64,000 nt of DNA from a virus (IMGVR_UViG_3300015608_002982:1-64000), one strand, 5' to 3'; positions 15,529 through 29,485 are shown, counted from the first letter of the stretch. Translations and numbers: made by a program. The notes: generated by a model not told the origin, from the letters alone.

Positions 15529-17244
15529 ATGAAAAGATTTTCAGATTTTATAAAAGAAGAAGTAGATTTAAGAGGAAGTAAAGGTATTCCTTCTGACTTT
15601 ATGTCAAAGGCGGACCAAGAAGCAAGAGCCTCTTTAGGTATTAGACCTGATGATGAAAGCCAGATGAGAACATTATGGCCCGAATTTGAAAGAAATATGA
15701 GAGAGTCTAACCAGATTCTAACTCAAGGTTTATCACAGGCTCAGGTTAAAGAAAGAGTTGAAAAACTTGAAAAATTAGCAGAAAAAGTTGTTAGAGATAG
15801 ATTTGATGAAATATTAGACTCTGCTATTAAACCAATTGAATTGAAAATTAAATTAGTTCCGATGGGTCAGGTTTCTCAAGAAATTAGAGATATTACTAAT
15901 GTGCCTCAACAAGCTAAACAACCAACTGAAGAACAACAAGAAGAACAAGACGAAAAAGACGAAGAAAATAGAAATAAGGAACAAGAGGAACAAACACCGG
16001 AAGAAAGACTTGAAGGTGAAGAGACTCCTGGTACTGATTTAGTTGCAGCAGTCGATAAGAAGAAAATTCTTAATATGATTACTCAAGCCGCTGGTAAATC
16101 CACAAAGGATATTATCAGAGCATCTGATATTGTTGATGAAGGCTTACAAGAAATATTTGGTGATTCCTGGAGAAGAATTTTAGATTGTTGGATTAGAATG
16201 TCTGATATCGCAGATAAGATGGATTGGGTTATTCCTATTGGTAGAAAATCTCAAATGATGAAAGATATGCCTGGTGGAATGGCTGGTGCTTGTCAAGTTA
16301 AGTGGGAAAGTCATTCAGGTAATTTTTATGACATGAAACTTCTTTTAGAAAAAGAAGCAACTAAAATTGTTATTCATGCTACTGGTGTTGATTTTCCAAT
16401 GTTAATACATGAAACAATTAAAGGTATTTATCTTTTCTTACAATCAGGTGCTATTAAAAAAGATAAAGAAACTGCTAAGATAGTTAAAGCGGCTACATCT
16501 TCTTTTTCAGATGAGGCTCAAGACTTTAGATATGGTCCTCCAGCCTTTCAAATGTTGTTAAATTTTGTAAATATGTTTCCTGAATCAAATCAATATAAAA
16601 GATTGGATACAAGAGTATTTACCATTTTAGCACTTGATAAAGAAAGAGCAATGGTTGAAGCAAAATCATCAAAGCCAGAGTTTAAGGAATACTTAGATAA
16701 AAAAGCTGATGTTGCTAGAACAGATGAACAATTTTTAGAGATAATGAAAAGTCTTTTCTCTGTATTTGATTTACAAGGTACTAATTATGTCGTAAATGAA
16801 GAAAAGTTCAATACATCTTTAGCTAAGAGAGAAATCAAAAAGATAATTGATTATATAGTCGATGATATAGAATCTTACAAGTCAGAAATTGAAGAGTGGG
16901 AAAAAGAACAAAGAGAAAGAGAAGAAGAATCTAAATATCGTCAAGAGTATAATGATGAAGAGGGAACTATAGAACCTGGTCAAGAAGAAGAATCAGATAT
17001 AGATGCTTTAATTAAAAAGACATTATATGGTGGTCAAGAAGAAGAATCTCCAGAATCAACTGAGGTTGATTATACACAGTTAAGTCAGAGAGAACTACAG
17101 GATCTTATTGATGATGCCTTAGATGCAGGTGATTATAAAAAAGTTCAAATGCTTGCTCAGTATATGAAAGAAGGTAAAGAAGTATATCTAAAAGAAATTG
17201 AGAGAATAAATGAATCTCATAATTTTCATACAAGAAGAAAATAA
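15529..17244 (+). CDS. Large acidic CTS-bearing protein with C-terminal IDEAL/UVR-like helix pair
   Basis: MKRFSDFIKEE; FPMLIHETIKG; LQDLIDDALDAGDYKKVQML. Confidence 0.65.
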   Translation: MKRFSDFIKEEVDLRGSKGIPSDFMSKADQEARASLGIRPDDESQMRTLWPEFERNMRESNQILTQGLSQAQVKERVEKLEKLAEKVVRDRFDEILDSAIKPIELKIKLVPMGQVSQEIRDITNVPQQAKQPTEEQQEEQDEKDEENRNKEQEEQTPEERLEGEETPGTDLVAAVDKKKILNMITQAAGKSTKDIIRASDIVDEGLQEIFGDSWRRILDCWIRMSDIADKMDWVIPIGRKSQMMKDMPGGMAGACQVKWESHSGNFYDMKLLLEKEATKIVIHATGVDFPMLIHETIKGIYLFLQSGAIKKDKETAKIVKAATSSFSDEAQDFRYGPPAFQMLLNFVNMFPESNQYKRLDTRVFTILALDKERAMVEAKSSKPEFKEYLDKKADVARTDEQFLEIMKSLFSVFDLQGTNYVVNEEKFNTSLAKREIKKIIDYIVDDIESYKSEIEEWEKEQREREEESKYRQEYNDEEGTIEPGQEEESDIDALIKKTLYGGQEEESPESTEVDYTQLSQRELQDLIDDALDAGDYKKVQMLAQYMKEGKEVYLKEIERINESHNFHTRRK

Positions 17245-17253
17245 ATTTAAACA

Positions 17254-19206
17254 ATGAAATTATTTAAGTATAACCAATTTTTAGGTGAAAAACCACTAAA
17301 TGAGAATCTTGATAAGGCAAAAAAGTTTATGAAAGAAACATATTTGCTGAAAACTGTTGCTACTGATCTTGGATTTATTGAAGGTGAATTAAAAGCACAG
17401 TTAGACCATAAAGAAAAGAGAAGTCTTACTTTAGGTGATTTTACTCCTGAGCAACAAGAAGAAATTAAACAAAAGTTAAGAACTACTAAATTAACAGACC
17501 AAGAAGTAAGAACTATTGAAAGAGATCCTGAATTCTTAAAGATTAGAGAGTTATTAGGTAATCAATATATTGGTTGGACTTATCCATTTACTTATTTCTA
17601 TTTTGTTGAAATGGTTTCATTAGATGAATTATTTAATAGTGAGGATTCTATATTTAATAAGTTAATTGAGTATAAAGGTTTGCTAGATAAACTACCAAAA
17701 AAGTTTGACCAAAACTTTATTGATGTTAATATTCCTAATAATGCTGAGGTTTTAATAGATGGCTTAGATTCATTAGAGGATTATAGAAAGATTAAGAAAG
17801 TATTTGATAAATTAACACCTGTTTTGAAAAAAGACTATACTGATTCACCTGAAGTTATTAAACAACAATTTGCTGAAGTTTGTAGAGGATTTGATCAATT
17901 AGGTGGTGATGATGAAGCCAAGAAAGAAAAACTTTGGAAATCATTTTTTGGTGAGGTGAGAACTATTGAAGCTGACCAAGTTATTCACGGTAGAGCATAT
18001 AAGAAAGGTGACAAGAGATACTTTGGTCCTCTTAACAGATATACAAATATTAGAGAATTCATCAAAGCTGGTCAAAACTATTTGAAATCATCTGAGAATG
18101 AAACAGTATTGGCTTTCTATGATAAGATTAATAACTGTAATGATAAATATGGTGCTTTAGGTGCTGATACAGTATTTGAAGAAAATGGTATCTTAATTAT
18201 TGAAGTTAAATCATTCCAAGCTAATCAATTCTTAAATGGACATACAAGACACTGTATTAAAGATTATTCTTCTCAGTGGGAAAACTATGTGGCTTCACAC
18301 GATAACAAACAGTATTATATCTATAACTTTAATATTCCTCAATATGATAACCTTTCAACAATTGGTATTACAATTGAGCCTGGTCAAAGAATTAGAGCTT
18401 GTCACGCTAAAGATGATGCTGGTATCTCAAGTAGAATTAAAGATATTCTAAAAGGCTGGGAAAGAGAATATGGTATTAAAGATGACCTTTTTGCTGAACT
18501 TAAACCAATGACCGGTGAAGAAGTTGAAAAGAGAAGAAGAGCTAAAGTTGCTGAAAGAGAGATTGTTAAGAAAGGTCTTACAATTGAACAAATCACAAGA
18601 TATGTAAAAGAAGATGGTGCTAACATCAATAAGGATAATTGTGTTGCTCTTTTACACGCAGTTGAGGAAAATGATTTAGATAAAGCAAAAGTAATTCTTG
18701 ATTTAGGTGGTTCGCCAAACTTGAGAAGTAAAGCAGATGCTATTATTAATAAAGCAACTACACTTGATATGATTAAGTTATTAGTTGCTAATGGTTCTGA
18801 ATTAACAGGTGAAGTATTTAATAATATTTGTGATGATTTAGATGCTGTTGAGTATTGCTTAAAGCAAGGATTAGATCCAAACTTTGATAACTTCCTTCCT
18901 ATTAGAAGATGTGTTAAAGGCTCTTGGAAAACTAAAGATGATATTGGTGAAGGTTACTTTGATGTGATGAAGCTACTTGTTAAATATGGTGCTAAATTAC
19001 AATCTGAGGGTAATAGATATATGCAACTTAAATGGGCAGCAGAATATGGTCGTTTAGATTTTATTGATTACATGATTGAAAAAGGTGTTAAAACTGGTTT
19101 CAAAGCGGCTCTTTCTTGGCTAAATCACAGTAGAAAAATTCCTGATGCTAAAAAGAAAGAAGTTGTTGCTTACTTAGAAGAGAAGATTAAACAATACGGA
19201 GAATAA
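17254..19206 (+). CDS. CTS-bearing protein with C-terminal ankyrin repeats
   Basis: MKLFKYNQFLGE; ALLHAVEENDLDKAKVILDLGG, LKWAAEYGRLDFIDYMIEKG. Confidence 0.75.
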   Translation: MKLFKYNQFLGEKPLNENLDKAKKFMKETYLLKTVATDLGFIEGELKAQLDHKEKRSLTLGDFTPEQQEEIKQKLRTTKLTDQEVRTIERDPEFLKIRELLGNQYIGWTYPFTYFYFVEMVSLDELFNSEDSIFNKLIEYKGLLDKLPKKFDQNFIDVNIPNNAEVLIDGLDSLEDYRKIKKVFDKLTPVLKKDYTDSPEVIKQQFAEVCRGFDQLGGDDEAKKEKLWKSFFGEVRTIEADQVIHGRAYKKGDKRYFGPLNRYTNIREFIKAGQNYLKSSENETVLAFYDKINNCNDKYGALGADTVFEENGILIIEVKSFQANQFLNGHTRHCIKDYSSQWENYVASHDNKQYYIYNFNIPQYDNLSTIGITIEPGQRIRACHAKDDAGISSRIKDILKGWEREYGIKDDLFAELKPMTGEEVEKRRRAKVAEREIVKKGLTIEQITRYVKEDGANINKDNCVALLHAVEENDLDKAKVILDLGGSPNLRSKADAIINKATTLDMIKLLVANGSELTGEVFNNICDDLDAVEYCLKQGLDPNFDNFLPIRRCVKGSWKTKDDIGEGYFDVMKLLVKYGAKLQSEGNRYMQLKWAAEYGRLDFIDYMIEKGVKTGFKAALSWLNHSRKIPDAKKKEVVAYLEEKIKQYGE

Positions 19207-19209
19207 AAT

Positions 19210-19236
19210 AAAAACCCACCAATTGGTGGGTTTTTT
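19210..19236. terminator. Bidirectional intrinsic terminator
   Basis: AAAAACCCACC-AATT-GGTGGGTTTTTT. Confidence 0.9.
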
Positions 19237-19237
19237 A

Positions 19238-19897
19238 TTAGATAGATAAGAATATTTCTTTATCACCGTTTACCTCTTGTAGTAAGTATTTCTCGCCGTG
19301 TAAGGCTTTTACTCGTTTAAGCCAATCTAAGGTTTTAACTTTTACCACCCAAACTTCATCCTTTTTGTTTTTTGTTTTTGTAATTCCTTTTACAATAACA
19401 CCTTCTTTTAGATTGTAATCATTATTTCTAATAGATTCTATAAAGTCAAGTGTATAAGGTCCCTGATATACAACATCCGGTATATGTAAGTGACCAAAGT
19501 CTTCAATAAAGTTTTTTGGTGTCACAAATCCATGCTTATACATATTAACATCAAATAAAATAATGTCTTTTTTATCTGAGTCGTAATGTCTACCGGCAAA
19601 TGAGTTCTCACCTACATATTCAGCAAAAACAACAAAGCTTTCAATTCTTTTATAGCTTTTGTTATCTCTGAATACTTTAGGTAAAGTATCACCATATTTA
19701 TTTTTAAATAAAGTAATAGCCTCACCAAATTGTTCATGTGTTTCATCTATCATCGTGTTTCTGGTACCAAACTTATACCAACCACGTTTAGGATTCCATT
19801 CAGCACGAATATTTGAACCATCAAGCTTATCAAAAGCATAGATGTATTCGTTGAATAAACCTTTATTATAATAAGGTATTTTACAATATGTCTTCAT
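19238..19897 (-). CDS. RNA ligase, Rnl2-like nucleotidyltransferase core
   Basis: Motif I FDKLDGSN, VFAEY, ILFDV, KEGVIVK, KVKT. Confidence 0.8.
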   Translation of the reverse strand: MKTYCKIPYYNKGLFNEYIYAFDKLDGSNIRAEWNPKRGWYKFGTRNTMIDETHEQFGEAITLFKNKYGDTLPKVFRDNKSYKRIESFVVFAEYVGENSFAGRHYDSDKKDIILFDVNMYKHGFVTPKNFIEDFGHLHIPDVVYQGPYTLDFIESIRNNDYNLKEGVIVKGITKTKNKKDEVWVVKVKTLDWLKRVKALHGEKYLLQEVNGDKEIFLSI

Positions 19898-20762
19898 TAA
19901 ATAGTATATTTAACCATTTATTTTTATATGATGCAGCGTATGCGCCTGAGTTATTTTTTTGAAAATCATTTTTGTTTTTATATTTTAATGACTCTTTTTT
20001 ACACTCCTCAAAGTTCCAGTGTCCCTTAGGTTTTCTTATAGATAACATGTGTGAGCATATTTCATTAAGCCATCCATTTTTTTGAGCAGATCGATAGGCA
20101 CTTTGAGATTTCACTTGAAATTCTGATCTATATTTATATTTTAATGATTCTTCAAGACATCTATCTTTTGTCCAATATAAAGACTTATTCATATCACCAG
20201 TGCTACCTATACCACCAGCTTTTATTTTATTTAAAATATTAAAGCCTTTTGTCTTATATAGACTAATATATTCAACCTCTTTTTTTATAGCCTCTTGTAT
20301 ATCTATATAATCTGTTAATTTAATCAATTTAAAATCCCCGCATTTTTTTAAGTGGTTAAAAACAGTTCCTTTTAACATGTGTTGTTGATTTCTCCTTTCT
20401 ATGTTTTTTGTCAATCCAACATAAATAAATTTATCAGCAAATTCATAAACATATATACATCTTTTATCGTTAACGTAGTTATTACTCATGTGTGAGAACA
20501 TATAAATCCATCCATTTTTAATTATTTTTTTATACACACTTGGATTATTTGAATATAATTTAGACCTATTTCCATACTTTAAGGATTCAATATGACATTC
20601 ATTTTTACTCCATATTTTTACTGGCATCATGTGAGTGCATATTTCATCTAACCAATTATTTTTTAAAGCTGACATATATGCTCCTCTGTGATTTTTTTCA
20701 AATTCGCTTCTTTTTTGATAATATGAAGCAACCCTTATACATTCATCCTTCGTCCATTTCAT
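19881..20762 (-). CDS. GIY-YIG-type homing endonuclease with repeated WTKDxC..ESLKY modules
   Basis: CIYVYEF..IYVGLT..RRNQQH..EVEYI..GFNILN. Confidence 0.75.
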   Translation of the reverse strand: MKWTKDECIRVASYYQKRSEFEKNHRGAYMSALKNNWLDEICTHMMPVKIWSKNECHIESLKYGNRSKLYSNNPSVYKKIIKNGWIYMFSHMSNNYVNDKRCIYVYEFADKFIYVGLTKNIERRNQQHMLKGTVFNHLKKCGDFKLIKLTDYIDIQEAIKKEVEYISLYKTKGFNILNKIKAGGIGSTGDMNKSLYWTKDRCLEESLKYKYRSEFQVKSQSAYRSAQKNGWLNEICSHMLSIRKPKGHWNFEECKKESLKYKNKNDFQKNNSGAYAASYKNKWLNILFNEDIL

Positions 20763-20804
20763 TTTTTTGATTTTTATTTTATATATTAAAATTAAAAAAT
20801 GAAA
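20757..20804 (-). promoter_or_regulatory. 11-bp inverted repeat enclosing a late promoter and occluding the HEG start codon
   Basis: TTTCATTTTTT (20757-20767, contains the start) / AAAAAATGAAA (20794-20804); AATATATA on the minus strand at 20780-20787. Confidence 0.6.
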
Positions 20805-20835
20805 AATTATACAATTACTACAATAAAGGATTTCA

Positions 20836-21540
20836 TTATTTTAATTTATTTTTAATTAGTTCTGATGTGTTGAAATCGTCTCTTCTTGTAAATTGACTAT
20901 TTACAATCTTAAATGATCTATCAACCCAACCATTTTTACATTGTTTAATAACAATACCTTCTCTTATACCATCTCTATAGTCAGACGATAGTTCTGATTC
21001 CATTACAATCTCATTAATGCTGTTGAATTTCATATATTTAGACTTTATGAAACTAATTTTAGTATTTGACATAAGTTCTTCAAATATATCTGTTGATAGA
21101 TATTTTTTATCCTCAACAACATAGATATCAAATGCTAAAAACCAATCAGGTAGTTTATCATAATGTATTGAGTGTTGCGCAATCATCCACTCACCATATA
21201 TTGTTATTGGAGACATTAACTTTTTTGAAAGGTATTTAATATCTTCGCTGTGTTCATGTATCCAATTCCAAGCTGGACGAAATTGTAGCTTTGCTGGTGT
21301 TTCTTTTTTGATATAACCTTTTCTTAGAACTTTATTTCTATTTCTAAGTATAGCTGAGTCAAGCCAAGAAACACCAACATTTGATCCATCTACTTTTTCT
21401 TGAACATAGCCCTCAAATGGTAGTTCAACATCAATCAAAATATCATCATGTGTCATATTAGATATGTTTTTATCTAAATGTGCAATCCTTGTATATTCTG
21501 GGGATATATTGTATAAATTATTTATCTGTTTCATTTTCAT
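20836..21540 (-). CDS. RNA ligase, Rnl2-like
   Basis: VQEKVDGSNV, IYGEW, FLAFDI, REGIVIK, FKIV. Confidence 0.85.
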   Translation of the reverse strand: MKMKQINNLYNISPEYTRIAHLDKNISNMTHDDILIDVELPFEGYVQEKVDGSNVGVSWLDSAILRNRNKVLRKGYIKKETPAKLQFRPAWNWIHEHSEDIKYLSKKLMSPITIYGEWMIAQHSIHYDKLPDWFLAFDIYVVEDKKYLSTDIFEELMSNTKISFIKSKYMKFNSINEIVMESELSSDYRDGIREGIVIKQCKNGWVDRSFKIVNSQFTRRDDFNTSELIKNKLK

Positions 21541-22168
21541 TTAGTATTAGTAATCTATCTACACCTATAGCGAAGCCTACTCCACCTTCATATGAACCAC
21601 CGCCACAAACTTGTTTTGATGATCCTAACTCAGGACAAGCAATTTCAAATCCTTTACCACCTTTATAGTAGTCAAGTCCTCTAGTTGCATCTAGATTGAT
21701 TTCATAATTTTTTGTAACTAATTCAATTAGTTTAGTAGCAATCTCAACCATTTCTTCTGAATAGTCTTTAGAAGGATTTAAAACTTCAACACCGAATTGA
21801 GTGAATTGTCTCCATCTTCCAGCTTGTGTGTTTTCACCTCTAAAACATTCACCAATGTAAAACATCTTTACATCTTTTGTGAACTTGAACTTTTCAGTTG
21901 ACAATTGTTGAACAATTGCTGTGTATTCAGGACTTAAACATAAATCACGATTACCTCTATCTTTGAAGTTAAACATCATGTTTCTGTTTTCGTCTCCTAC
22001 TTTAGATTGAAATGTTTCTTGTTTCTGGATAACGGGTATCATTATTTCTTGATACCCATATGATTCCAGAATTTCAATCATTTGATTGAGTAAAACTCTT
22101 TTACTTTTAGCTTTATTAGCAAAAAGGATTCTTGTTCCTTTATATGTGCTATTTAATTTGATTTCCAT
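21518..22168 (-). CDS. hisS: Minimal histidyl-tRNA synthetase (catalytic core only, no anticodon-binding domain)
   Basis: KGTR, YGYQEI..P (motif 1), DRGNRDLCLSPEYT, FRGENTQAGRWRQFTQ (motif 2), GLDYY, GGGSY..GFAIGVDRL (motif 3); only 216 aa. Confidence 0.8.
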   Translation of the reverse strand: MEIKLNSTYKGTRILFANKAKSKRVLLNQMIEILESYGYQEIMIPVIQKQETFQSKVGDENRNMMFNFKDRGNRDLCLSPEYTAIVQQLSTEKFKFTKDVKMFYIGECFRGENTQAGRWRQFTQFGVEVLNPSKDYSEEMVEIATKLIELVTKNYEINLDATRGLDYYKGGKGFEIACPELGSSKQVCGGGSYEGGVGFAIGVDRLLILNENETDK

Positions 22169-22204
22169 TTTTTTATTTTTTTTAGTCTTTGTTTAATCAC
22201 TATA

Positions 22205-22909
22205 TCATTCTTTATATCTAAAAATGTATTCACATTTAGCATATCTACCAGTTAGAAATTTACTAATTTTAGACCTATTTATATTTAAATTTCTAGATGC
22301 TTCGCTTATTGAGATGAACTCGTAAAGTAAGTTTCCTTCTCCATCATATACCAAAATAGATTTATTAAAAGCATTATTCTTTTTAATTAGATTAATTGTA
22401 TTTTCTGAATATACGCCACTTCTACCCTTGTTCCAGGGAACTTGACCAATATGTGATAATGATTGTTTTCTTCTATGTTCTTCACTTCTATTTGTTTTTT
22501 TAGTTCCTTTTAAGATTTTGGACATTTTTTTACCAAAGTCAACTTTATATTCATCTGAAACTTCTCTCCAAAATTTTTTAGACCTTTCTGATATTACCTT
22601 TTTATACTCTTCACTGTATGGTTTTCTACTTGAGTTTCCACTTCCACCATTTATCTTATTCACTAATTTAAATCCAATTTCATTGAATATGTTAATGCAG
22701 AATTTTTCAAAAAAATTAGCATCTTCTCTACTCATTTCCTTCTTTAGAAATCCATAATAGTAGCCTTCTTTGTCCACAATCTCATTCCACTCTTTACTTC
22801 TTCTTGATTTTGTCTTTATTCTATTCTTTTGTCCAAATCCTATGTAAAACGGTAGGTCTGTTTCTTTAGAAATATGTATATAAACATAAAATATATTTTC
22901 TTTATTCAT
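22205..22909 (-). CDS. GIY-YIG homing endonuclease with NUMOD3/NUMOD1 modules
   Basis: FYVYIH..PFYIG..NRI; RSEEHRRKQS, PWNKG, FISISEASRNL. Confidence 0.8.
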   Translation of the reverse strand: MNKENIFYVYIHISKETDLPFYIGFGQKNRIKTKSRRSKEWNEIVDKEGYYYGFLKKEMSREDANFFEKFCINIFNEIGFKLVNKINGGSGNSSRKPYSEEYKKVISERSKKFWREVSDEYKVDFGKKMSKILKGTKKTNRSEEHRRKQSLSHIGQVPWNKGRSGVYSENTINLIKKNNAFNKSILVYDGEGNLLYEFISISEASRNLNINRSKISKFLTGRYAKCEYIFRYKE

Positions 22910-23105
22910 AATAATTTTCTATTTCATTTTTTATGTATATATTAATATTTCTACGCTCTGCTCTTTTAGCCGCTCTTTGTTCTCTTTTAAGATCATCTTT
23001 AATTCTTTTTCTGACCTTAGGTTCAGTGATATGATGGAGTTTTCTTTTTCTTTTCCTGATACTTTCAACTTTGTCTTCGTACCAAGTTATATCTTTTGTT
23101 TTCAT
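22902..23105 (-). CDS. Small, highly basic protein; first gene after the attenuator
   Basis: 67 aa, K/R-rich (RKRKRK, KREQRAAKRAERR). Confidence 0.65.
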   Translation of the reverse strand: MKTKDITWYEDKVESIRKRKRKLHHITEPKVRKRIKDDLKREQRAAKRAERRNINIYIKNEIENYYE

Positions 23106-23131
23106 ACTTTATTTTCTAATTTTTTTAAAAT

Positions 23132-23160
23132 AAAAAAGCCCAGTCGTTGATTGACTGGGC
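23132..23160 (-). terminator. Attenuator terminator hairpin
   Basis: Minus strand GCCCAGTC-AATCAAC-GACTGGGC-TTTTTT, located between the leader ORF and the first gene. Confidence 0.9.
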
Positions 23161-23184
23161 CATACATAAAAATGCTTAGCTGGG

Positions 23185-23229
23185 CTATGTCCAGTCAATC
23201 GGAATTTTGTATGTATGTAAAGTTCTCAT
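23185..23229 (-). CDS. 14-aa leader peptide MRTLHTYKIPIDWT
   Basis: Its GATTGACTGG segment is complementary to CCAGTCAATC of the terminator 5' arm and loop. Confidence 0.75.
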   Translation of the reverse strand: MRTLHTYKIPIDWT

Positions 23230-23274
23230 TGTTCGTTATATATTACTTTTTAATATTGTTTATTTTCTACTATG

Positions 23275-23305
23275 CAAATATAGTAAATATTTTTTACTTA
23301 CCAAA
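23275..23305 (-). promoter_or_regulatory. Bacteroidota housekeeping-sigma promoter driving the leader
   Basis: Minus strand TTTG (23305-23302) - 19 nt - TATATTTG (23282-23275). Confidence 0.75.
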
Positions 23306-23343
23306 TTAAACATATCTAGTTTTTGTAATTTAATATATAACTT

Positions 23344-24144
23344 ATGGAAAATACAAAAGTTTGTAAAAACTGTTTAGATATTAAAACATTTGATTGTTTT
23401 TATAAAAAACCAAATGGTAAAAAAGGCTATATATCAATATGCAAAGAGTGTCATTTGAAAAAAAGTAAGAAATATAATACTAAAAATTCAGAGTCACTAA
23501 AGGAATATAAAAAACAATATAGAGAAGAAAATAAAGAATTTATCTTAAAAAAAGAAAAAGATAAAAGAGATAGTTTGACAGATTATGAAAAGGAGTTAAA
23601 AAGTTTATATCAAAAAGAGTGGAGACAGAAAAACGCTGATAAAATGAAAGAATATGATAAGAATTATTATAACGATAATAAAGATCTAATACTTACTAGA
23701 GCTTCAAAGTATAGAGTTGAGAATAGAGAGAAAATTAAAGAATATCTATCAAATTATAAGCCCATTAGAAATGAAAAAAGAAATGAAAGATTAAAAACTG
23801 ATATTGTTTTTTTATTAGAGAAAAAAATTAGAAATTATATATATGAATCATTTAAGAACAACGGGTATAAGAAATCTTCAAAAACTGAAAGTATTTTAGG
23901 TTGTTCATTTGACGACTTTAGACTATACTTAGAATCAAAATTTGAACCTTGGATGACCTGGGAAAATAGAGGTCTATATAACGGTGAGTTAAACTATGGT
24001 TGGGATATAGACCATATTATACCTATTTCGTCTGCAGAATCAGAAGATGATGTGATAAGATTAAACCATTATACTAACTTGCAACCTCTATGTAGTTATA
24101 TAAATAGATATATTAAGAGAGATTCAATAAATATTGATAGATGA
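23344..24144 (+). CDS. HNH-type homing endonuclease (Cys-rich N-terminus, long helical linker)
   Basis: CKNC..CKEC; LGCSFDDF..WMTWEN..WDIDHIIP..HYTNLQPL. Confidence 0.8.
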   Translation: MENTKVCKNCLDIKTFDCFYKKPNGKKGYISICKECHLKKSKKYNTKNSESLKEYKKQYREENKEFILKKEKDKRDSLTDYEKELKSLYQKEWRQKNADKMKEYDKNYYNDNKDLILTRASKYRVENREKIKEYLSNYKPIRNEKRNERLKTDIVFLLEKKIRNYIYESFKNNGYKKSSKTESILGCSFDDFRLYLESKFEPWMTWENRGLYNGELNYGWDIDHIIPISSAESEDDVIRLNHYTNLQPLCSYINRYIKRDSINIDR

Positions 24145-24829
24145 TATAAGAATCACAAAGATCTTCATATGGCTTTGGTGTAGTAGACATTGGTAGGATA
24201 TCATCTTTTATCTCAATACAGTGTTTTGTCCAAAAATCTTTATTTTTTTCATTTTCAACAATAGACCTAAATATTTCAGTTTTGGTAAATTTTCCACCAG
24301 GAATACCCATATTGTTTCTCCATATGTATTCAAATCTTGCCTTTTTACCACCTATTTCCTTTATTGTTGGTTTGTATGTTAATTTGCACGCCTCCAACTT
24401 GAGTGTTGACGGAGATAGAACTGTTATATCTTCTGAAACTCTATCAAATAGTTTCTTTCTTAAAAGTGTTGAGAAGGTAACAAGGTCAATAAGGTCACCT
24501 ACTTGAGCACCAAAGTTATAACCTTCAATTCCAATCTTAGTCTCTTTTAGAGGATCGATATTAGCAAGAATATCTTTAACTATTTCATCAGTAATTAAAT
24601 CATAATCTTTTAATTTAACTAACTCACCTTCAGAGTAATCCTCAAATTCTCTGTATTCAATAAATTTATAAGTTACATATTGTTCGGCTGATTTGAACCA
24701 CTTAGTGATTCCTTTCTTACCAAATACTTTAGATTCTCTACAATAGTTGTAGATTTTAAATGTATCACCAGAACTAACCACAAGTGCTGTTGATATTAAT
24801 GAAGGGTCAATTGCGACAATATTACACAT
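24113..24829 (-). CDS. RuvC-like Holliday junction resolvase
   Basis: IVAIDPSL, IGIEGY, SPSTLK, EDLCDSY acidic tetrad pattern. Confidence 0.75.
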   Translation of the reverse strand: MCNIVAIDPSLISTALVVSSGDTFKIYNYCRESKVFGKKGITKWFKSAEQYVTYKFIEYREFEDYSEGELVKLKDYDLITDEIVKDILANIDPLKETKIGIEGYNFGAQVGDLIDLVTFSTLLRKKLFDRVSEDITVLSPSTLKLEACKLTYKPTIKEIGGKKARFEYIWRNNMGIPGGKFTKTEIFRSIVENEKNKDFWTKHCIEIKDDILPMSTTPKPYEDLCDSYIIYQYLLNLS

Positions 24830-25442
24830 TAGCCTTATCTACTTTTATATCTCTGTTAAATTTAGAACAGAGTGGTTGTAGGTTTGTGTAGTGATTTAAC
24901 CTTATTATATCTTCTTCCGATATTGCACTTGATACTGGTATTATGTGGTCTATATCCCAACCATAATATAACTCACCGTTATATTTTCCGTAATTTTCCC
25001 AAGACATCCAAGATTCAAACTTTGATTCTAAATACGCCTTGAAATCTTCAAACTCACAACCAAGTATGTCTATAGTTTTTGATTTTTTTGAATATCCGTT
25101 TCTTCTTATAGAATTACCTATCAATGACCTTATTTGACCTTTTAATTTGTAAAAAGAATCTTTATCTCTCTTTTCTTTGTTGTATCTTTTCTTATTTTCG
25201 TTAAGTCTTTCTTTATTTAATTGGTAATATATTGATTTCTTTTCTTTTATCTTATTAGATGATTTTAATCTATATTCTTTATTCTTTATAAGAATAATTT
25301 CTTTATTTTCTTTATAGTGATCTTTTGCATAAGACTTTCTACATTCTTTGCATTGATTTCTATACCCATCAATTGAATTATCTCTCTTTGTAAAACAATT
25401 TATTTCTTTATTTTCTTTACAAGTTATACATATCTTATACAT
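24822..25442 (-). CDS. HNH-type homing endonuclease, paralog of 23344..24144
   Basis: CITC..CKEC; LGCEFEDF..WMSWEN..WDIDHIIP..HYTNLQPL. Confidence 0.8.
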   Translation of the reverse strand: MYKICITCKENKEINCFTKRDNSIDGYRNQCKECRKSYAKDHYKENKEIILIKNKEYRLKSSNKIKEKKSIYYQLNKERLNENKKRYNKEKRDKDSFYKLKGQIRSLIGNSIRRNGYSKKSKTIDILGCEFEDFKAYLESKFESWMSWENYGKYNGELYYGWDIDHIIPVSSAISEEDIIRLNHYTNLQPLCSKFNRDIKVDKANV

Positions 25443-25485
25443 ACAACTATATATTAAATTTATTGCCTTTAATCATTTAATATAT

Positions 25486-26109
25486 ATGATTATGAGAAAC
25501 ATCAAAAAATACGAAGACTTCCTAAATGAAGAAGTCAATTTAAAGAAAGCTTTAACAACTGGTGCTTTAGCTGCTGGTATGATGTTGAGTAATCCAGTTT
25601 ATTCACAGACAAAAACAAATACAACAAAAACAGAGGAAACTTCTAAAAAAGACAACCTATATTACATATCAACATCTTCTAAATCAGGTCTTAATGGACC
25701 TTACAATAAAGATCCTGTTAAAAATATTAAATTCGCAGTTACACCTTATGTTGTTGATACATTAGGTTTGAGTTTGGTAGAGTTAGAAAAAATTTATTTA
25801 AAAGCTCTTGAGACTGCCAAGATAAAACTATTATTATCTAGTAGTTTAAAAGATAAAAAAACATTTGATTATAAATCAAATGAAAATGGTATTATTGGTG
25901 GTATAGTTTCAATTGAAGAACTTCGTAGACAAGGTCCTGAATTTAGTAGTGATAAAGATTTATACATATCTTTTAGTTTTACTTGTGATGGTAATGAATA
26001 TGTTGTTGGTATAGAATGTTATCTCTCTGCTGCAAAAAGTGGAAATATCCCCTATAATGCTATAGGTGTTACAAAGGTATGTTGTGGTCCTTGGGAGCCA
26101 TTTGAATAA
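25486..26109 (+). CDS. CTS-bearing protein with internal signal-peptide-like segment
   Basis: MRNIKKYEDFLNEE then VNLKKALTTGALAAGMMLSNPVYS-Q. Confidence 0.65.
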   Translation: MIMRNIKKYEDFLNEEVNLKKALTTGALAAGMMLSNPVYSQTKTNTTKTEETSKKDNLYYISTSSKSGLNGPYNKDPVKNIKFAVTPYVVDTLGLSLVELEKIYLKALETAKIKLLLSSSLKDKKTFDYKSNENGIIGGIVSIEELRRQGPEFSSDKDLYISFSFTCDGNEYVVGIECYLSAAKSGNIPYNAIGVTKVCCGPWEPFE

Positions 26110-29368: not shown

Positions 29369-29485
29369 TTTAATAATTTTTATTTTATAATTTATATATT
29401 AATAATGAATTCTCCCCTTTTAACTTTTTTATAAATTTTCACCATATTTTTCTTAAAGGAGGAAATATAATTTAATATATAGTAT

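Follow-up and report, generated by a model that had tools for sequence, protein, structure and literature searches.

What controls the row of minus-strand genes at positions 19,238–23,305 of the viral sequence IMGVR_UViG_3300015608_002982:1-64000, in which a minimal histidyl-tRNA synthetase (HisRS)-like protein and two ligase-type proteins stand behind a promoter, a very short open reading frame (ORF) and a terminator? The window is the whole 64,000-nucleotide (nt) stretch analysed, counted from its first letter. Leader-peptide attenuation is a textbook form of bacterial control of amino-acid operons, and an earlier note on this DNA had proposed that a phage version of it operates here. Our analysis indicates that the element at the head of the operon, a switch of ~105 nt, is probably a ribosome-operated leader-peptide transcription attenuator that gates the genes for a basic protein (p67), the HisRS-like protein and PF09414 ligases.

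The promoter, the 14-codon ORF, the terminator and the complement between leader and terminator that the earlier note described were all found where it had placed them. The promoter is of the Bacteroidota type, with TTTG at 23305–23302, a 19-nt spacer and the −7 box TATATTTG at 23282–23275 (minus strand, as are all features of the leader and operon given below), and this promoter type, the only pointer to the host, suggests a member of the Bacteroidota. The window has 9 instances of the promoter pattern, where 4.1 would be expected, and the −7 box and a TTTG or TTGG −33 element are conserved among relatives (alignment A1). The 45-nt untranslated stretch between promoter and leader ATG ends in the gene-start motif TAATATATAA (23236–23245), 6 nt ahead of the ATG; this 10-mer has 9 copies in the window, where 2.3 are expected. 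The word TAATATATA occurs at 29 sites in the window, and an ATG-initiated ORF begins 4–8 nt downstream at 14 of the 29, the leader included. Thirteen other ORFs thus share the TAATATATA-N4-8-ATG context of the leader ATG, and 12 of these 13 have 121–378 codons. Example sites lie at 23331-23339(+), 25478-25486(+), 29473-29481(+), 43774-43766(-), 14323-14315(-) and 3053-3045(-). The word is a candidate phage promoter giving leaderless or near-leaderless messenger RNAs (mRNAs), or else a start-site signal. The leader ORF itself (MRTLHTYKIPIDWT; 23185–23229) consists of 14 codons and a TAG, with the ATG at 23229 and the stop codon at 23187–23185. The conserved window at codons 4–7 reads Leu-His-Thr-Tyr and contains the single conserved His codon.

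Behind the ORF and a hairpin-rich spacer stands an intrinsic terminator (23127–23161) with a 9-base-pair (bp) stem (23161–23137), a 7-nt loop and the T tract TTTTTATTTT; it is one of three terminator-like sites within 17000–26000. Four parts of the leader interact. Segment A, the antiterminator strand GATTGACTGG, lies within codons 10–13 (23191–23200), and segment B (CCCAG, 23180–23184) directly follows the stop codon. Segment C (23149–23159) comprises the terminator 5' arm and the start of its loop and can partner either A or segment D (23137–23145), which is the terminator 3' arm and a near copy of A. The GATTGACTGG at 23200–23191 is the exact reverse complement of CCAGTCAATC at 23158–23149 in the terminator 5' arm and loop. 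When the 92 nt upstream were shuffled 200,000 times, perfect complements of at least 10 nt arose with a frequency of 7e-5, which puts A:C well outside what chance would give. In the rest of the window the A/C word recurs no more often than chance predicts.

The 146-nt region is more stably folded than shuffled versions of it (z = −4.4). In its minimum free energy fold an AU-rich stem, P1, is formed by a 5' arm within codons 5–9 (23204–23217) and a 3' arm at 23161–23173, and encloses a mini-hairpin in which CTGG of A pairs with CCAG of B. The stop codon sits inside the loop of this A:B mini-hairpin, beside A. The pairings available are therefore A:B within P1, A:C as the antiterminator and C:D as the terminator. 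The earlier note had recognized the antiterminator/terminator pair but overlooked P1 and A:B, a conserved hairpin that would act as an anti-antiterminator. The T tract ends about 22–30 nt ahead of the p67 ATG, leaving no room for a promoter between them, so the operon would depend on read-through from the leader promoter. A search of the whole window against Rfam returned no family at gathering score; the His, Trp, Phe, Thr and Leu leaders and the T-box were all unmatched. A T-box-like reading, in which UGG of A would pair with the CCA end of a transfer RNA (tRNA), was dropped for want of evidence.

Relatives of the element were gathered by searching viral contigs with the HisRS-like protein and p67, by scanning viral and metagenome contigs for the A/C/D pattern, and by collecting contigs that encode homologues of p219, the last protein of the operon. 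This gave 13 distinct leader copies (alignments A1 and A2), a diverged copy in a 617-kb phage (L054:7563-7745) and the remote variants L100:3438-3543, L097:2536-2627 and L098:2657-2784. A further alignment from a covariance model (A3) mixed in weak and reverse-strand matches and was left out of all counts. The leader pattern had 0 matches in a scan of 185,579 prokaryote genomes, and a degenerate leader start (Met-Lys/Arg-x-Leu-His-Thr-Tyr) gave only chance matches in viral contigs beyond the known copies.

The 13 copies and L054, which come from uncultured huge phages, all keep the ATG, P1, C, D, the T tract and an ORF of 14–15 codons whose stop codon falls within the A:B loop. Wherever the sequence extends far enough downstream, the leader lies upstream of p67 and/or the HisRS-like gene together with one or both ligases, so that its linkage to this operon is constant; the presence of endonuclease genes varies among the loci. 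In L054, L100, L097 and most relatives a p67 homologue immediately follows the switch.

A, C and D hardly vary among the 13 copies, in surroundings that do (mean column identity 82%), as expected where every base of C is constrained by two partners, one in A and one in D. The A:C helix of 10–11 bp is 97–98% paired, both in the 13 copies and in the 14 that include L054. The helices of the terminator state are 92% paired and C:D 97%; A:B is 95% paired, and P1 is 83% paired with compensatory changes from U-A to C-G. In L054, where A reads GATTAGCTGG, C CCCAGCTAAT and D ATTAGTTGGG, two adjacent positions are altered jointly in all three segments: GA has become AG in both A and D, and TC has become CT in C. 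Once L054 joins the alignment, pairs altered on both strands number two in A:C, a count reached by 1 of 500 shuffles, and three in C:D, reached by 0 of 500. P1 persists in L054 as well, as GAAA:TTTC in place of AAAA:TTTT, and so does the mini-hairpin, with new letters (GGAT/ATCC) and again with the stop codon in its loop. In L100 and L098 the A:C complement (10–11 nt) persists, its register displaced in the direction of the loop. The covariation in related phages for which the earlier note had called is thus present, with pairing kept and a concerted A/C/D change in L054; coming from few lineages, it is good but not overwhelming evidence.

The leader ORF shows signs of coding as well as of pairing. 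Among the 12 indel-free copies, 6 columns vary within codons 4–9, and 5 of them are third positions (hypergeometric p=0.0039), as are 3 of 3 within codons 4–7 when L054 is included (p=0.018); one tRNA suffices to read both members of each synonymous codon pair. Beyond codon 9 the frame of L009 and L026 is shifted by −1, with the stop codon re-phased by one base and still in the loop. A pair of +2/−2 indels in L037 and a +3 insertion in the loop of L003 both leave the ORF open with its stop codon in the mini-hairpin loop. The ORF therefore bears the signs to be looked for in a coding sequence, namely third-position variation, frame-preserving indels, a phased stop codon and the gene-start motif of its genome. 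Taken with the conservation and the concerted compensatory change, these coding signatures argue that the mutually exclusive antiterminator/terminator architecture is real, and they lend the attenuator proposed earlier its comparative support.

How could a ribosome operate such a switch? We folded the nascent RNA up to the end of C and masked what a ribosome would cover, to a limit 15 nt downstream of the first A-site base, a mask size assumed from known ribosome footprints. With codon 4 or 5 in the A site, A:C forms in 13 of 13 copies (8–11 bp). At codon 7 it is partial (5–6 bp) in 12 of 13 and absent in L009, and 0 of 13 copies form it once the ribosome stands at the stop codon, largely by construction, since the mask then covers A. 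Folding with a ribosome footprint, a check that the earlier note had put forward, thus gave the predicted contrast between early and late positions under the assumed mask. Until D has been transcribed, little separates the P1 state (−10.6 to −21.7 kcal/mol) from the A:C state (−14.6 to −22.1 kcal/mol); afterwards the terminator state is lower by 4–13 kcal/mol. These energies suggest a switch that is kinetically decided.

In the mechanism that we propose, a ribosome that reaches the stop codon would cover A, leaving C to pair with D, and RNA polymerase would terminate at the T tract (OFF). A ribosome held with codons ~4–7 in the A site would melt the P1 5' arm and expose A; the 10-bp A:C helix would form as C emerges, D would be left without a partner, and transcription would read through into the operon (ON). 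The positions and timing assigned to the ribosome here are to be read as predictions. The natural signal would then be slow decoding of codons 4–7, for example through shortage of or damage to tRNA-His, tRNA-Tyr or another tRNA. An untranslated leader would terminate if P1 is trapped and would read through where the barriers are low; the conserved P1 and A:B sequester the antiterminator strand and may keep the switch OFF without ribosomes, so that the ON state which the earlier note expected of an untranslated leader is uncertain, and the computed energies point both ways.

The state of the leader without a ribosome is where this reading meets its strongest rival, general translation surveillance, in which A:C would be the default, ON whenever no timely ribosome arrives, only fast and complete translation would turn the switch OFF, and no codon would be sensed. 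In a transcript through C with no ribosome, A:C is the lowest-energy fold in 12 of the 13 copies. The barrier from P1 to A:C is only 3–7 kcal/mol in L002, L005, L034 and L041, and P1 leaves the 5' part of A (GATTGA) unpaired as a potential toehold. The whiB7 upstream ORF (uORF) attenuator, moreover, answers many translation defects (PMC10274678). Against surveillance stand the conservation and partial compensation of P1 and A:B, L054 included, which are hard to explain unless sequestering A matters. The barriers are 10–17 kcal/mol in 7 of the 13 copies (and 8.4 in L030 and 9.1 in L040), and codons 4–7 are conserved at the amino-acid or tRNA level. We regard this rival as unlikely and favor the codon-reading, ribosome-operated attenuator.

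Further evidence on whether ribosomes read such leaders comes from the same phage clade. In related loci, tRNA arrays lie directly downstream of a short ORF and a terminator, the ORF stopping at, or close to, a copy of the terminator 3' arm, and the peptides match the tRNAs behind them. Ser/Arg-rich leaders precede sets of tRNA-Ser and tRNA-Arg (L052:3714-3824, L100:864-984, L054:5005-5133, L050, L097, L029, L030 and L034), and His/Phe/Lys/Trp leaders precede those four tRNAs (L007:3014-3171, L010:2806-2962 and L054:2789-2940). An Asn/Ile/His/Trp leader stands before the matching set (L011:3406-3558 and L014:8528-8695) and a Gln-rich one before two tRNA-Gln genes (L012:8997-9127). The other leader-matched sets are Pro/Ile/Val/Glu/Asp/Ala, Tyr/Lys/Gly/Pro, Cys/Asp/Tyr/Arg/Asn/Ile/Glu/Met and Tyr/Glu. 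Additional leader units before tRNA arrays lie at L100:7877-8003, L012:847-995, L018:6011-6160 and L021:13019-13182 and in L047, L048 and L028. Across eight non-homologous leader types, the true pairing of leaders with arrays scores best of all 40,320 permutations. This matching of peptide to tRNA argues that ribosomes operate these switches.

A:C also co-varies between the families of tRNA-array leaders, for example from GACTGG/CCAGTC to GAACTGGGT/ACCCAGTTC, and L018, L021, L028, L032 and L039 have tRNA-side leaders with the same A, C and D words as the focal element. Judged by these comparisons, the focal element is one member of a clade-wide set of ribosome-read switches around phage translation genes, built to the same design of promoter, short ORF, A, C and D segments and T tract. 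The tRNA-array leaders gate tRNA genes and their peptides spell the tRNA set downstream, whereas the focal leader gates protein-coding genes, so that the meaning of its codons is not self-evident. We found no publication describing codon-matched leader attenuators before phage tRNA arrays. At L007:4814-4975, between a tRNA-Lys array and the HisRS-like gene, lies a tRNA-like sequence with a long insert after the anticodon stem and no ARAGORN call; it may be an intron-containing tRNA.

The conservation of A, C and D in sequence, even across leader families with different peptides, could also reflect a trans-acting factor that binds A or P1, such as p67 acting as an autoregulator, another RNA-binding protein of phage or host, or uncharged tRNA, with the ORF incidental. 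The highly basic p67, first gene after the switch in most copies, could indeed be an RNA-binding regulator. The three-way pairing constraint, however, already accounts for invariant A, C and D, and copies of the L005/L040 type keep the switch with no p67 in the locus. An incidental ORF would not be expected to show third-position variation, frame-restoring indels and a phased stop codon, and no Rfam family matches, the T-box included. We consider such a factor quite improbable. That the short terminated transcript or the 14-residue peptide is itself the product, with a leaky terminator and no switch, is scarcely credible, since although promoter, ORF and strong terminator make a complete small gene and attenuator-derived RNAs and peptides can act in trans (rnTrpL, peTrpL: PMC6614838, PMC7298713), it would leave the conserved, co-varying A:C and the stop codon beside A unexplained and the operon without a promoter of its own after the terminator, and the C-terminal half of the peptide changes with the frame in L009 and L026 while the nucleotides do not.

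Several observations weigh against the ribosome-operated attenuator itself. Within the main family A, C and D are near-invariant, and the covariation comes from one diverged lineage and from the register shifts of L100 and L098. L037 keeps the nucleotides of the P1 arm while its peptide changes, so part of the conservation acts at the level of RNA; once L037 is counted, the part common to all copies shrinks to Met-Lys/Arg-x-Leu-His. The leader has one conserved His codon and no run of regulatory codons, and amino-acid specificity is accordingly weak. L100 and L098 keep the His codon with no HisRS-like gene in their loci, and L097 has neither. The ORF of L098:2657-2784 has 10 more codons after A, and a ribosome terminating at its end would leave A uncovered; this variant departs from the simple model. 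Finally, the leader mRNA of the L005/L040 type would be nearly leaderless, with the −7 box 8 nt before the ATG, and its translation in the hosts is assumed.

A strict link between the His codon and the HisRS-like gene is ruled out by L100 and L098. One conserved His codon before a HisRS-like gene, and two in L037, leave the association no more than suggestive; bacilli, too, have His leaders ahead of hisS paralogues (PMC2965389). A more ambitious interpretation is that Leu-His-Thr-Tyr(-Lys) is a dedicated sensor of tRNA cleavage, deacylation or depletion during infection, for example by host anticodon nucleases. It would induce the two ligases, the minimal HisRS and a basic cofactor, as one channel of a genome-wide code of codon-matched test peptides gating every tRNA array and tRNA-servicing operon. 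We put this forward tentatively and think it rather more apt to fail than to hold. As a candidate trigger, tRNA cleavage by the nucleases of abortive-infection defence would be attractive, and His starvation may be another.

In the sub-lineage of L005, L006, L036, L038 and L040 (e.g. L006:4830-4953), ~27 nt of the 5' untranslated region are deleted, which places TATATTTG 8 nt ahead of the leader ATG, and the switch stands directly before the HisRS-like gene without p67. These copies have a C-to-T change in C that retains G-U pairs with both A and D. At L008:4957-5001 a TAcaTTTG box is closely followed by another 14-codon ORF, which differs from the leader, has two His codons and stands immediately before a HisRS-like gene; the ORF overlaps a hairpin without a T tract, and this element may exert translational rather than transcriptional control.

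The operon behind the focal switch opens with p67 (22902–23105), a basic protein of 67 residues for which Pfam, PHROG and NCBIfam gave no family and the Atlas no informative neighbor. A NUMOD1-type homing endonuclease gene, a variable insert, follows at 22205–22909. The minimal HisRS-like class II catalytic core (21518–22168; 216 residues; PF13393, 2.5e-24) aligns to the solved HisRS structures 1qe0 and 5e3i over motif 2, RGLDYY, GGGSY and motif 3. It ends after motif 3, without the insertion and anticodon-binding domains, and scores below equivalog level (TIGR00442, 155 bits against a cut-off of 287). The RNA ligase at 20836–21540 (PF09414, 3.4e-26; phrog_548, RNA ligase) has no close solved structure by sequence. 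A second variable insert, a GIY-YIG homing endonuclease gene (19881–20762), precedes the gene for p219 (19238–19897), a divergent ligase-type nucleotidyltransferase of 219 residues. Its KLDGSN (motif I) and EGVIVK align with the neighboring ligase; a direct profile scan gave no Pfam match, and precomputed annotation places the p219 cluster, with most of the 1,088 homologues, in PF09414. The row of genes is closed by a palindromic terminator flanked by A and T runs (19210–19235). It is the next minus-strand site closing the row, consistent with the earlier statement that no obvious terminator occurs until 19236. The gene list given there, a basic 67-residue protein, a homing endonuclease, a minimal HisRS and two ligases, was correct except that it omitted the GIY-YIG endonuclease.

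A metagenome contig that is 95–100% identical (L025; Ga0214921_10046370) has the order leader, p67, HisRS-like gene, p219, and lacks both endonucleases (NUMOD1 and GIY-YIG) as well as the first RNA ligase. The three genes missing there therefore look like recent mobile insertions into the operon. Upstream of the attenuator promoter, a plus-strand gene for an HNH-type endonuclease (23344–24144) lies between the promoter and the minus-strand gene 24113–24829, whose 3' end it overlaps by 32 nt, and an endonuclease VII-like gene is at 24822–25442; the region is dense in homing endonucleases. The window is part of an 89-kb viral record with an estimated CheckV completeness of 45%. ARAGORN found no tRNA or transfer-messenger RNA in the window or the record, so this copy does not lie beside a tRNA array. 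A phage collection gave only two partial matches (82–83% identity over 14% of the query), both to uncultured phages of 630–640 kb.

How does the switch compare with known attenuators? Like trpL, hisL, pheL, thrL and leuL, it has a promoter, a short ORF, alternative hairpins and an intrinsic terminator before the first structural gene. As in enterobacterial leaders, the position of the ribosome is the proposed decider and a third hairpin sequesters the antiterminator strand. Unlike them, it has only the Leu-His-Thr-Tyr window in place of a codon run, is phage-encoded and regulates genes that are not biosynthetic. Its antiterminator strand also lies inside the ORF by the stop codon, so that a finishing ribosome would mask A directly. 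By mechanism class, then, the element would be a case of classical leader-peptide attenuation, set apart by its viral location, its ligase and synthetase-like targets, the antiterminator strand within the ORF and the lack of a codon run.

Leader-peptide attenuation of a synthetase gene is exemplified by the pheM leader of Escherichia coli pheST, which has stretches of the cognate codon. Bacilli have His-codon leaders upstream of hisS paralogues and hisZ (PMC2965389). The focal leader likewise stands before a HisRS-family gene, but it has a single His codon (two in L037) where the bacillus leaders and pheM have stretches of cognate codons, and its target is a 216-residue core without an anticodon-binding domain, co-regulated with RNA ligases. 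T-box leaders share the terminator/antiterminator switch before a synthetase-type gene, whose expression they make dependent on tRNA charging; they bind tRNA directly and need no translation, whereas the focal leader is ~105 nt long, contains an ORF and has no T-box match. In the mycobacterial whiB7 uORF attenuator, stalling in a short uORF gives antitermination and activation follows loss of tRNA, synthetase or amino acid, which makes it a sensor of translation stress rather than of a single amino acid (PMC10274678). The focal switch is closest to it in the likely breadth of its signals; the whiB7 attenuator is cellular, controls a transcription factor and is unrelated in sequence, whereas the focal element is viral. 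A literature search that was only partly phage-specific found no published case of leader-peptide attenuation in a phage, nor one whose targets are RNA ligases or a synthetase-like gene next to tRNA arrays.

If the proposed mechanism is true, huge phages would gauge codon decoding in real time and answer with functions for tRNA supply, repair and charging. The roles of phage tRNA and ligase genes, the host defences that they counter, and the functions of the minimal HisRS and p67 would then become directly testable; the 105-nt switch itself is small, portable and conserved.

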